Positions 30,824-36,120 of a stretch of DNA of 64,000 nucleotides are shown here, piece by piece; within the stretch, counting starts at the first letter, position 1, and every line of letters starts with the position of its first letter. Location of the stretch: positions 156,631-220,630 of the forward strand of contig JAUIBR010000002.1 in NCBI GenBank assembly GCA_030427705.1, written 5' to 3'. The translations under genes were made by a program, and so were the position numbers. This DNA is from a bacterium. GTDB lineage: Bacteria; Myxococcota_A; Bradymonadia; Bradymonadales; Bradymonadaceae. The notes under the pieces were generated by a model that did not search any database, was not told the origin of the DNA, and was given only the letters and a program-made list of their open reading frames with translations.

Positions 30824-33178
30824 ATGGAAGAACGACGACAACGAGAACGCGAACTGGTGCTGGCACCCAATGAGTTTTGCTACGTCTTGGATACCACGAA
30901 GGGGCATATCAACTGCTACGTTGGTCCCAACAAGACGAGCCTGGCTCAGACAGACCAACCGGTCATCTTCGACGAACTTGAGCAACGGTTTCACGCCGTG
31001 GATTTGAGCGATGCGACGCAGCTGTTTCCGACCGCGACCTCGGCGGGGTACATCCTACTTCACAACCCATCAAAGAACGCCGTGCACCCGACACTGGGTG
31101 TTTCAAATGCGATGGTCGAATTGCGTACCGGCGAACGTGAGGTCGTGCGCGGTCCAGCGTCATTTCCGTTGTGGCCCGGCCAGATTGCGACCGTATTCGA
31201 CGGCCACAAACTGAGAACAAATCAATATCTGCTGGTCGAAATCTACGACGCAAAAGCGGCCGAAGCGAGCTGGGCAGAGGCGACGGATGTTGCTCCACCG
31301 GAATCCTTCACGATTGGCGACCGACTTATCATCCGGGGCACCGACACCTCGTTCTTCATTCCACCAACAGGCGCACAGGTTATCCCTGAGCAATCGGGTG
31401 AGTTTGTTCGTTCGGCGGTGACCCTCAAGCGGCTGGAATACTGCATTCTGGTTGGCGAAAACGGCACCGAACGCTACATCCGCGGCGAAGCGGTCGTCTT
31501 TCCCGAGCCTAGCGAACGATTCTACGTGCGCGGTGGAAGAAAGCAGTTCCGCGCGACAGAGGTCAGCGAAACGGTCGGCGTTCACGTCAAGGTCATCGCA
31601 CCCTACTCAGAGGGTGGTCGCGATTACGTCGAAGGCGAAGAACTCTTCATTACCGGCAAAGACGGTCTTTACTTTCCCCGGGCGGAGCATGCGTTGATCC
31701 GCTACGGCGACCATGAAGTGCATCACGCGGTCGCTATCCCAAAGGGCGAAGGGCGTTACGTGCTCAGCCGCTCGACCGGCGAGATACGGCTGGTCCAAGG
31801 TCCCACAATGTTCCTTGCCGACCCAAGAGACGAGGTCATCACCAAGCGACGACTTAGCAAGAAGACCTGCGACCTCCTCTACCCAGGAAACGAAGATGTT
31901 CTCAAAGCCAACGGGTGGCTGGAAGACCTCCCGAAATCTGAGACGCGTCGTCGCAAAGTTGAGATTGTCGACGATACGCAGAGCCGCCACCTCGACCGTT
32001 CTTTCGTCCCGCCCCGCTCCATCACGTTGGACAACAAGTTTGAGGGCGCGATCAAGGTCGAGGTGTGGCCGGGCTACGCCGTGCAAGTTGTGAACTGTGC
32101 AGGCGAGCGCCGTGTGGAGGTGGGCCCAGCGTCGATCCTCTTGGAGTACGACGAAGAACTCTCACCACTGCGGTTGTCGACAGGGACCCCTAAATCGTCG
32201 GCTCGCCGATTGACCACGGCATATCTCAAAGTCGCAGGGAATCGGGTGAGCGATGTCATCGAAGTCGAGAGCTCAGACTTGGTTAAGATGGACGTGATGG
32301 TCGCGTATCGCGCGCAATTCGAAGGCGATGACCCGGGGAAGTGGTTTGCGGTGGACGACTACGTGCAATTGGTCTGTGACCACTGCACGTCGCTTATCAA
32401 GTCGGCGGCAAGGGAGCTTCCGATCCGCGAACTTCGCGCCCAGATTACCGACATCTTGCGTGATGCTGTGTTGGGCCCGAAAACTGAGGAAGGACGCGTT
32501 GGACGCGCGTTCACCGAAAACGGAATGCGAGTGTACGACCTGGAAGTCCTGGATACCCGTATCGAAGACGAGGAAATCGCCGACCTTCTGCGAGCCGTTC
32601 GCACCGATTCCATCGAACGAGCGGTTAACGTGGTGGCGTGCGAGCAGGAGCTGCACGACGAGAGTCGCCTGACTGAGATCGAGCGACAGTTGCTCCAGCA
32701 AACCCACGCAACGGCGGTCTTGAAGGAAGAGCTGGAAGCGATGCTCGCGTCAAAAATCCATGAAACGGCCATGGCAAAACGCCAGCACACCGTGGAGCTT
32801 GAATTGCTGGAGCGGCAGGCTGAGATCGAACAGCTGGCGGCGCGAGAAACCGTCGTGGTCAAACAGCTCGAGCTCAAGGACCGAATTCACGCGCAACACA
32901 TGACCGAGGAGCAAGCCAGGATGAAGCTCTGGCTCGAAGAGCTTGAAGGCCGCACAATCGCAGCTGAGCGACATGCTACGGCCTTTACACCCGAGCTCGT
33001 GCACGCCGTGAACAGGCTCGCGGATGAGGCCGTCCTGCGCGATATCGCAGAGAACTTCAGCGAGATTGCCGCGATTGAAGGCAAGGGGCTGCTGGAAACC
33101 GCCCGGAAGTTCTTGGACTTCACAGCGATTTCGAGTTTGCCCCGATTAGCGATTGAGCCTGTCGAAGATGCGACCTAA
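30824..33178 (+). CDS. Major vault protein (MVP) homologue: N-terminal vault repeats + SPFH-like shoulder + cap-helix coiled coil
   Basis: AAGGAGG lies 6 nt upstream of ATG 30824. Repeat 1 is LVLAPNEFCYVLDTTKGHINCYVGPNKTSL (compare eukaryotic MVP [24 protein letters not shown]). Repeat 2 has SFPLWPGQ (compare PFPLYPGE). A shoulder-like module runs VEVGPASILLEYDE...LKVAGNRVSDVIEVESSDLVKMDVMVAYRAQFEG. A long C-terminal coiled coil follows (LTEIERQLLQQTHATAVLKEELEAML...). Confidence 0.7.
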   Translation: MEERRQRERELVLAPNEFCYVLDTTKGHINCYVGPNKTSLAQTDQPVIFDELEQRFHAVDLSDATQLFPTATSAGYILLHNPSKNAVHPTLGVSNAMVELRTGEREVVRGPASFPLWPGQIATVFDGHKLRTNQYLLVEIYDAKAAEASWAEATDVAPPESFTIGDRLIIRGTDTSFFIPPTGAQVIPEQSGEFVRSAVTLKRLEYCILVGENGTERYIRGEAVVFPEPSERFYVRGGRKQFRATEVSETVGVHVKVIAPYSEGGRDYVEGEELFITGKDGLYFPRAEHALIRYGDHEVHHAVAIPKGEGRYVLSRSTGEIRLVQGPTMFLADPRDEVITKRRLSKKTCDLLYPGNEDVLKANGWLEDLPKSETRRRKVEIVDDTQSRHLDRSFVPPRSITLDNKFEGAIKVEVWPGYAVQVVNCAGERRVEVGPASILLEYDEELSPLRLSTGTPKSSARRLTTAYLKVAGNRVSDVIEVESSDLVKMDVMVAYRAQFEGDDPGKWFAVDDYVQLVCDHCTSLIKSAARELPIRELRAQITDILRDAVLGPKTEEGRVGRAFTENGMRVYDLEVLDTRIEDEEIADLLRAVRTDSIERAVNVVACEQELHDESRLTEIERQLLQQTHATAVLKEELEAMLASKIHETAMAKRQHTVELELLERQAEIEQLAARETVVVKQLELKDRIHAQHMTEEQARMKLWLEELEGRTIAAERHATAFTPELVHAVNRLADEAVLRDIAENFSEIAAIEGKGLLETARKFLDFTAISSLPRLAIEPVEDAT

Positions 33179-36120: not shown

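Follow-up and report, generated by a model that had tools for sequence, protein, structure and literature searches.

We analysed a 64,000-nucleotide stretch of contig JAUIBR010000002.1 (NCBI GenBank assembly GCA_030427705.1, positions 156,631 to 220,630 of the forward strand) from a bacterium of the family Bradymonadaceae. This whole stretch is called the window hereafter, and positions refer to it unless another locus is named. Near its middle, on the minus strand, lies a gene for a predicted lipoprotein of 981 residues, which we call the EGF protein. It is disulfide-rich and multi-domain, with 105 Cys in total, and a run of EGF modules leads to a C-terminal head made of two paralogous modules, A and B, with two further EGFs between them. 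Its parts, from the coding sequence and the N-terminus onwards, are the following.

33175..36120, minus strand: coding sequence of the lipoprotein, ATG at 36120, TAG stop, 981 aa (from the open reading frame list and the start context)
36070..36120, minus strand: signal peptide, aa 1-17, MRNAFLILVMVLFVVGC; its n-region is charged, its core hydrophobic, and the lipobox reads V-V-G-C
35959..36069, minus strand: Asn-rich low-complexity tether, aa 18-54, with the core SNSNNDNNINNVNNVNNVNNSNNQ (from the translation)
35596..35958, minus strand: conserved Cys-rich region, aa 55-175, with 16 invariant Cys
35491..35595, minus strand: EGF0, aa 176-210 (CDRCDSDATCVEDAGEFTCVCNSGYTGDGFTC), lacking the calcium-site motif at its N-terminus; matched by PS01186 at aa 196
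34246..35490, minus strand: calcium-binding EGF (cbEGF) units 1-10, aa 211-625, 40-41 aa each (Pfam EGF_CA, PS01187, PS00010)
33853..34245, minus strand: module A, aa 626-756, a β-sandwich like those of PPC and collagen-binding domains, with four invariant Cys
33601..33852, minus strand: cbEGF units 11-12, aa 757-840, between modules A and B (PROSITE patterns)
33178..33600, minus strand: module B, aa 841-981, the C-terminal β-sandwich, also PPC/collagen-binding-domain-like

The array comprises 13 EGF modules, 12 of the calcium-binding type and one, EGF0, of the non-calcium type. Pfam EGF_CA matches 13 stretches of the protein with 301.2 bits, relative to a cut-off of 27 (E=1.1e-91), and EGF_3 matches 13 stretches with E=1.6e-109. 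The motif [DN]x[DN]EC occurs 12 times. All 12 cbEGF units carry both the PROSITE EGF_CA signature (PS01187; consensus [DEQN]-x-[DEQN](2)-C … C-x-[DN]-x(4)-[FY]-x-C, six Cys per unit) and the Asx-hydroxylation site PS00010, and the EGF_2 pattern PS01186 matches 13 times; 2,000 composition-preserving shuffles gave on average 0.002-0.05 matches per pattern. Eleven junctions read C-x-[DN]-x-[DN]-E-C, that is, a single residue separates the last Cys of one unit from the next calcium-site motif, a linkage of the fibrillin and Notch type. As proteins the units are 38-78% identical, units 4-7 forming a younger sub-cluster (63-78% amino acid identity). EGF0 is recognised by EGF_3 (E=4.9e-9), resembles uromodulin EGF-I (E=1.7e-7) and also aligns with EGFs of Notch. 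By every sequence criterion the units are full EGF_CA members, for which Ca2+ binding and Asx β-hydroxylation are predicted; a scan of open reading frames in part of the window found no Asp/Asn hydroxylase.

The first-pass annotation of this DNA had described 12 cbEGF units in a ten-plus-two arrangement. This is right for the calcium type, and the thirteenth, non-calcium EGF before the run of ten had been overlooked. The motif given there, D[IV][DN]EC, fits five units, the other seven starting with N. It had also named assignment of the Cys patterns to an unrelated bacterial family, in a hidden Markov model scan, as what would refute it; at 301 bits the repeats are genuine EGF_CA. Its further suggestion that the internal repeats make the locus prone to recombination did not hold up. 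At the DNA level the EGF units are 49-71% identical and no exact direct repeat in the gene exceeds 20 nt, which makes them a poor substrate for homologous recombination. In the EGF region, Tandem Repeats Finder reports only a 126-bp period of 3.1 copies with 72% matches (34601-34986, approximately units 5-7). As far as these data show, the differences in EGF copy number between homologues are a matter of evolutionary rather than strain-level dynamics.

Modules A and B are paralogous, as had been proposed (49% identity, E=2e-42), and the module profile scores 169.5 bits on module A. In an alignment of 22 module copies, taken from the query and ten homologues, four Cys are invariant, and there are G, Y and D positions that are conserved. 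Using this alignment, AlphaFold2 predicts an all-β structure for module B (pLDDT 95, pTM 0.90). This predicted structure has the β-sandwich fold of PPC and collagen-binding domains, with weak agreement from Foldseek. In a profile search of the PDB, the match was a Vibrio metalloprotease C-terminal domain (2luw, 'Metalloprotease … vEP C-ter 100', E=0.02). The Pfam scan with PPC (PF04151) suggested by the first-pass annotation gave 15.6 bits for module B (E=0.031), under the threshold of 25.9, and no hit for module A. One relative found via the module profile (P0175) reaches 42.5 bits, above that threshold. Hence, the label 'PPC-like' used in that annotation is correct for the predicted fold and for some relatives, but not as Pfam membership of the two modules themselves, and the relation between the module and PPC is probably one of superfamily.

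With module B as the sole query, a word-indexed search for homologues gave no matches. An exhaustive profile search, however, revealed a very large module family: 15,688 cluster representatives pass E<=1e-3 and 921 pass E<=1e-30, and a single protein can contain as many as 17 copies of the module. Many members have their copies spaced by a Cys-rich linker, CxPxCxGxxCGxDGCGGxCGxC, and not by EGFs. We sampled 57 module-bearing proteins: PPC matches were found in five of them (E<=1e-4) and EGF_CA in four, the partner domains were LTD, PA14, a galactose-binding-like domain (GBD_T9SS_assoc), P-domain, EGF and Cys-rich linkers, and no catalytic Pfam domain was present in any. Fold and partner domains together point to the two β-sandwiches being binding modules.

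A search with the whole protein returned 3,411 proteins at E<=1e-20. Among the best 120 of these, about two thirds have no eukaryotic name and come from metagenome-assembled genomes (MAGs) or metagenomes, with labels including Myxococcales, Myxococcota and Labilithrix. Between the bacterial matches stand fibrillin, LTBP and adhesion-GPCR proteins of metazoans, at 30-50% identity over the EGF array; proteins whose partner domains are Planctomycete-type or Big-type occur there too. Five full-length homologues from uncultured bacteria cover 94-100% of the protein at 42-49% identity and six further ones have the same order of parts, so that at least 11 homologues share the full design, in uncultured Myxococcota or Bradymonadales-type genomes. 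The only named one is MEZ4459947.1, an 'EGF domain-containing protein'. Tandem cbEGF arrays had been thought rare in bacteria by the first-pass annotation, a view that is overstated given these homologues and the many tandem-cbEGF proteins of Myxococcota and MAGs: judging from the sequence matches, Myxococcota metagenomes commonly contain such arrays, which are not rare in this branch of the bacteria. The open-access literature contained nothing relevant on EGF arrays of bacteria, Myxococcota or Bradymonadales.

Across 12 family members, the stalk is variable, with approximately 6-11 EGFs, and the head is constant, made of a module, 79-82 aa that correspond to two EGFs, a second module and a tail of at most 7 aa. 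A variable stalk below a constant head is what one would expect if a spacer carried a functional head. In the MAG GCA_964384605.1 the family is represented by at least three paralogues. Two are in tandem (loci L012/L013: 3718-6429 and 6448-9156), and the third (locus L010, 8001-10946) is followed, with a 4-nt overlap, by a gene at 10943-12079 with an N-glycanase_C domain. Within the window, the module profile found no second copy of the EGF protein.

The open frame of the gene spans 33175..36201 (minus strand) and includes an in-frame GTG at 36201 that would add 27 residues. We took the ATG at 36120 as the start because a comparable signal peptide begins every homologue and the GTG extension has no signal-peptide character. 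A pattern check of the PROSITE PS51257 type (positive n-region, hydrophobic core, [LVI][ASTVI][GAS]C with the Cys at 15-35) identifies a lipobox: as read from the translation, Cys17 comes after MRNAFLILVMVLFVVGC and is followed by GTDD. The lipobox is present in 10 of 11 homologues, most of which keep C-G-[TS]-[DE]-D from its Cys onwards (in the window, aa 18-21 correspond to 36058-36069). The acidic residues at +3/+4 after this Cys could be a candidate lipoprotein sorting signal. A 9-bp tandem repeat (Tandem Repeats Finder; 35985-36046, 6-7 copies) codes for the core of the tether, and the tethers of the homologues are 29-66 aa long and of varied composition. Both the lipobox and the Asn-rich linker had been recognised previously, and a lipobox with a low-complexity tether is kept in the homologues.

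The Cys-rich region that follows the tether was missing from the first-pass description. It contains the motif CxxxxxNGDE[ST]DxDCGGxCxxC, two CxxxxDCxSGxC-like knots and a DPDGDGxGxGPGC loop, and our searches with aa 55-175 found no recognisable relative and no fold match. The loop presumably recalls the calcium-binding loops of the thrombospondin-type-3 or DxDxDG kind. No NCBIfam model matches the 981-aa protein, and an exact-sequence look-up with either start codon returned no record. In a Logan short-read assembly of the same organism (ERR3428546), a 15,896-bp contig stops about 270 nt past the stop codon of the upstream MMPL transporter gene described below, at the start of the EGF gene. 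This contig end suggests that the repeat-rich EGF gene breaks assemblies.

The EGF gene has the same composition as its neighbours (GC 0.559 overall and 0.648 at third codon positions, GC3), and the loci of its closest homologues are syntenic, with genes for a FadL-like protein, a TPR protein of about 1,130 aa and an SRPBCC protein. In these loci the neighbours are 47-64% identical to those of the window, and the EGF protein has diverged to a similar degree (49% identity). Since composition matches the neighbours and synteny is kept, we regard the EGF gene as resident and vertically inherited, with no recent import. GalU of the window shares 69-74% identity with its counterparts in Bradymonadaceae and Lujinxingia, and the GalU and GH31 genes lie 3-11 kb from the EGF gene. 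Directly upstream is the following pair.

36265-39201, minus strand: SRPBCC/Polyketide_cyc protein and HAE3/MMPL-type RND transporter, 144 nt from the EGF start

The MMPL transporter has HpnN-like matches under the cut-off and its gene is specific to this genome; together with the SRPBCC protein it may form a lipid-export pair. We considered an operon between the EGF gene and this pair and rejected it as a conserved link: in the loci of the closest homologues MMPL is absent and SRPBCC is on the opposite strand. The POTRA-like and TPR neighbours were likewise set aside as a surface-lipoprotein export system, the POTRA protein being kept in one more distant locus only, and so was the TPR protein as an export partner, since it is conserved but generic and has a different relative strand in the closest loci.

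On the other side, convergent to the EGF gene, is an MVP-like gene (30782-33178, plus strand, 798 aa; MVP_shoulder E=9.1e-19, Vault_3 E=3.7e-10), which is missing from the loci of the closest homologues. According to an earlier report (bioRxiv 10.1101/872010), bacteria of the Myxococcales, Cytophagales and Oscillatoriales have MVP homologues; the present copy is in a Bradymonadales-type genome. The two stop codons overlap (cTAa), with the TAA of the MVP-like gene at 33176-33178 (plus) and the TAG of the EGF gene at 33175-33177 (minus), which leaves zero intergenic space and no room for a terminator between them. Scans for promoters and terminators gave results at or below chance. Further away, a 662-aa protein (6263-8251, minus) has an IgGFc_binding domain (PF17517, E=1.8e-56), a domain best known from animal mucosal proteins. 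The window also encodes a 1,117-aa Ser/Thr kinase-AAA_16-TPR protein (41108-44461, minus) and a 1,353-aa TPR/HEAT protein (12445-16506, minus); large signalling or scaffold proteins of this type are common in Myxococcota. An Lgt-like open reading frame at 51229-52176 scores under the NCBIfam cut-offs. Finally, five open reading frames of more than 500 aa have no Pfam match (4600-6270, 8164-9756, 17120-19066, 19066-21012, and 54327-56870).

What might such a protein do? The reading we prefer, and to which we give about even credence, is that of a Ca2+-dependent adhesin whose stalk presents two ligand-binding modules away from the cell. From the domain composition, its conservation and the pattern of variable stalk and constant head, we infer a lipidated, surface-exposed, rigid protein that would bind Ca2+ and a ligand. 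After Sec export, lipidation at Cys17 would yield an envelope-anchored protein, from which a flexible Asn-rich tether of about 37 residues would lead to a compact, disulfide-rich N-terminal region. The stalk would then consist of eleven EGFs, ten of them calcium-binding with single-residue linkers, and Ca2+ at each cbEGF junction would lock it into a stiff rod, as in the cbEGF pairs of fibrillin and Notch. At about 3 nm per module, an estimate from fibrillin structures, the 13 EGFs may span around 35-40 nm. The head, two paralogous β-sandwiches with two cbEGFs between them, would bind a polymer on prey, matrix or substratum. We count for this reading the binding-type partner domains of the module family and the lack of catalytic domains among the 57 sampled members. 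The Bradymonadales group is reported to kill its prey through contact between cells in saline habitats (PMC7460792, PMC11509652), and a calcium-dependent contact protein is plausible in such contact-dependent predators.

Several points weigh against an adhesin. Lipoproteins of diderm bacteria face by default the periplasmic side of a membrane; we found no surface-export partner, the lead offered by the POTRA protein not being kept in the closest loci, and no conserved same-strand partner gene in the homologue loci compared. The modules fall under the Pfam PPC threshold and are 10-16% identical to collagen-binding domains, so that no ligand can be transferred from the latter. The length and rigidity of the rod would follow from likeness to fibrillin. 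The papers on predation credit type IV pili with the contact and are silent on EGF proteins (PMC7460792, PMC11509652). A more specific proposal, in which the family serves Bradymonadales-type predators as a dedicated adhesin for contact with prey or substratum, with a tunable Ca2+ rod of about 6-11 modules and a fixed two-module head from a domain family of at least 15,000 clusters mostly invisible to Pfam, seems to us decidedly unlikely in its full form.

Some of this evidence fits other explanations as well. The evidence from architecture is equal for a matrix or biofilm scaffold, in which the cbEGF rod would self-associate as fibrillin does and the β-sandwiches would cross-link exopolysaccharide into a Ca2+-dependent matrix round the cells. 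The occurrence of several paralogues in one MAG, two of them in tandem, fits a family of structural proteins, and the members of the module family are long, multi-repeat and free of enzymes. However, the Pfam scan found no TB (8-Cys) or other known self-assembly domain in the protein, a lipid anchor favours a cell-bound rather than a released protein, and the context has no link to exopolysaccharide genes, GalU and GH31 notwithstanding; we hold a scaffold to be unlikely. The periplasm, where a lipoprotein of the inner or outer membrane could act as an envelope strut, a spacer or a chaperone-like binder, is by established knowledge the default location, and the absence of a conserved dedicated surface-export partner nearby agrees with it, as does the same-strand MMPL transporter and lipid-binding SRPBCC protein directly upstream in this genome. 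The arrangement of these two genes in the closest loci argues the other way. Moreover, a stalk of up to 11 EGFs plus a head would exceed a typical periplasm at about 3 nm per EGF, a roughly two-fold variation in stalk length is hard to square with a fixed periplasmic span, and the domains that accompany the module across its family are those usual in extracellular proteins. A periplasmic role thus has, in our view, a low probability.

Two explanations remain. That the gene was recently acquired from animals, and mimics host extracellular matrix or Notch-type ligands in a eukaryote-associated lifestyle, could be argued from the metazoan proteins interleaved with the bacterial matches and from the resemblance of EGF0 to uromodulin EGF-I. 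Yet composition and synteny led us to reject recent horizontal transfer from animals, the divergence of the protein being like that of its neighbours; there are paralogues inside one MAG; the N-terminal region and head modules are of bacterial types; and TB, DSL and other metazoan partner domains are absent. We therefore consider this explanation very improbable. Finally, PPC modules are known as aids to secretion or maturation that are cleaved off, as in secreted proteases, and the fold similarity to the PPC domains of collagenase and subtilisin-like proteases, together with the weak PPC profile match, would agree with such a classical pre-peptidase role. But neither this protein nor any of the 57 sampled contains a peptidase or other catalytic domain, and module A, being internal and running directly into a cbEGF (…YTLTV-DVDEC…), is no removable C-terminal extension, which makes this role extremely improbable.

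If the adhesin reading is true, bacteria would hold binding domains away from their surface by means of the calcium-locked EGF rod known from animal fibrillin and Notch. The protein would then be a simple and genetically tractable model for cbEGF mechanics, as well as a candidate adhesin for contact-dependent predation in Bradymonadia. In a broader form of the argument, fibrillin-style cbEGF rods could be an old, vertically inherited invention of Myxococcota and not a borrowed animal module; if so, old bacterial rods of this kind would bear on the origin of metazoan extracellular matrix modules. The immediate impact is modest, and consists in a correct annotation of the architecture, relatives being already named automatically as 'EGF domain-containing protein'. 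A dedicated model for the head module would better annotate many surface proteins of Myxococcota that Pfam now mostly misses.

Among known systems, the fibrillins and LTBPs are the most similar in their EGF units: the 12 units here have six Cys, 40-41 residues, single-residue linkers and matches to EGF_CA, PS01187 and PS00010, and fibrillin-like proteins are among the best database matches. However, the TB (8-Cys, PF00683) and hybrid domains of that family were not found in this protein by the Pfam scan, and it is not a member. It differs from fibrillin also in being a bacterial lipoprotein with a bacterial Cys-rich N-terminus and PPC-like heads, much shorter (13 EGFs) and with a rod that is predicted. 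The likeness to uromodulin EGF-I and Notch is limited to the single module EGF0, with no ZP, LNR or associated domains. Relative to PPC and to the collagen-binding domains of ColG and ColH (s3a/s3b and s3), with which it shares 10-16% identity, the head module exceeds them by about 30 residues, begins with G-[DE]-[TS]-C, possesses four invariant Cys and occurs once as an internal copy; it is not joined to a peptidase, whereas those domains are C-terminal to one. The closest protein is MEZ4459947.1 (P0001, GCA_041390025.1), which aligns with 100% of the query at 49% identity, has its parts in the same order and lies in a syntenic locus. The window locus differs from it by the MVP-like and MMPL genes beside the EGF gene. 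MEZ4459947.1 bears an automatic name only, and the open-access text gave no function, structure or publication for it. The EGF protein is not a new kind of system, but an uncharacterised protein built from known domain families in a conserved bacterial architecture.

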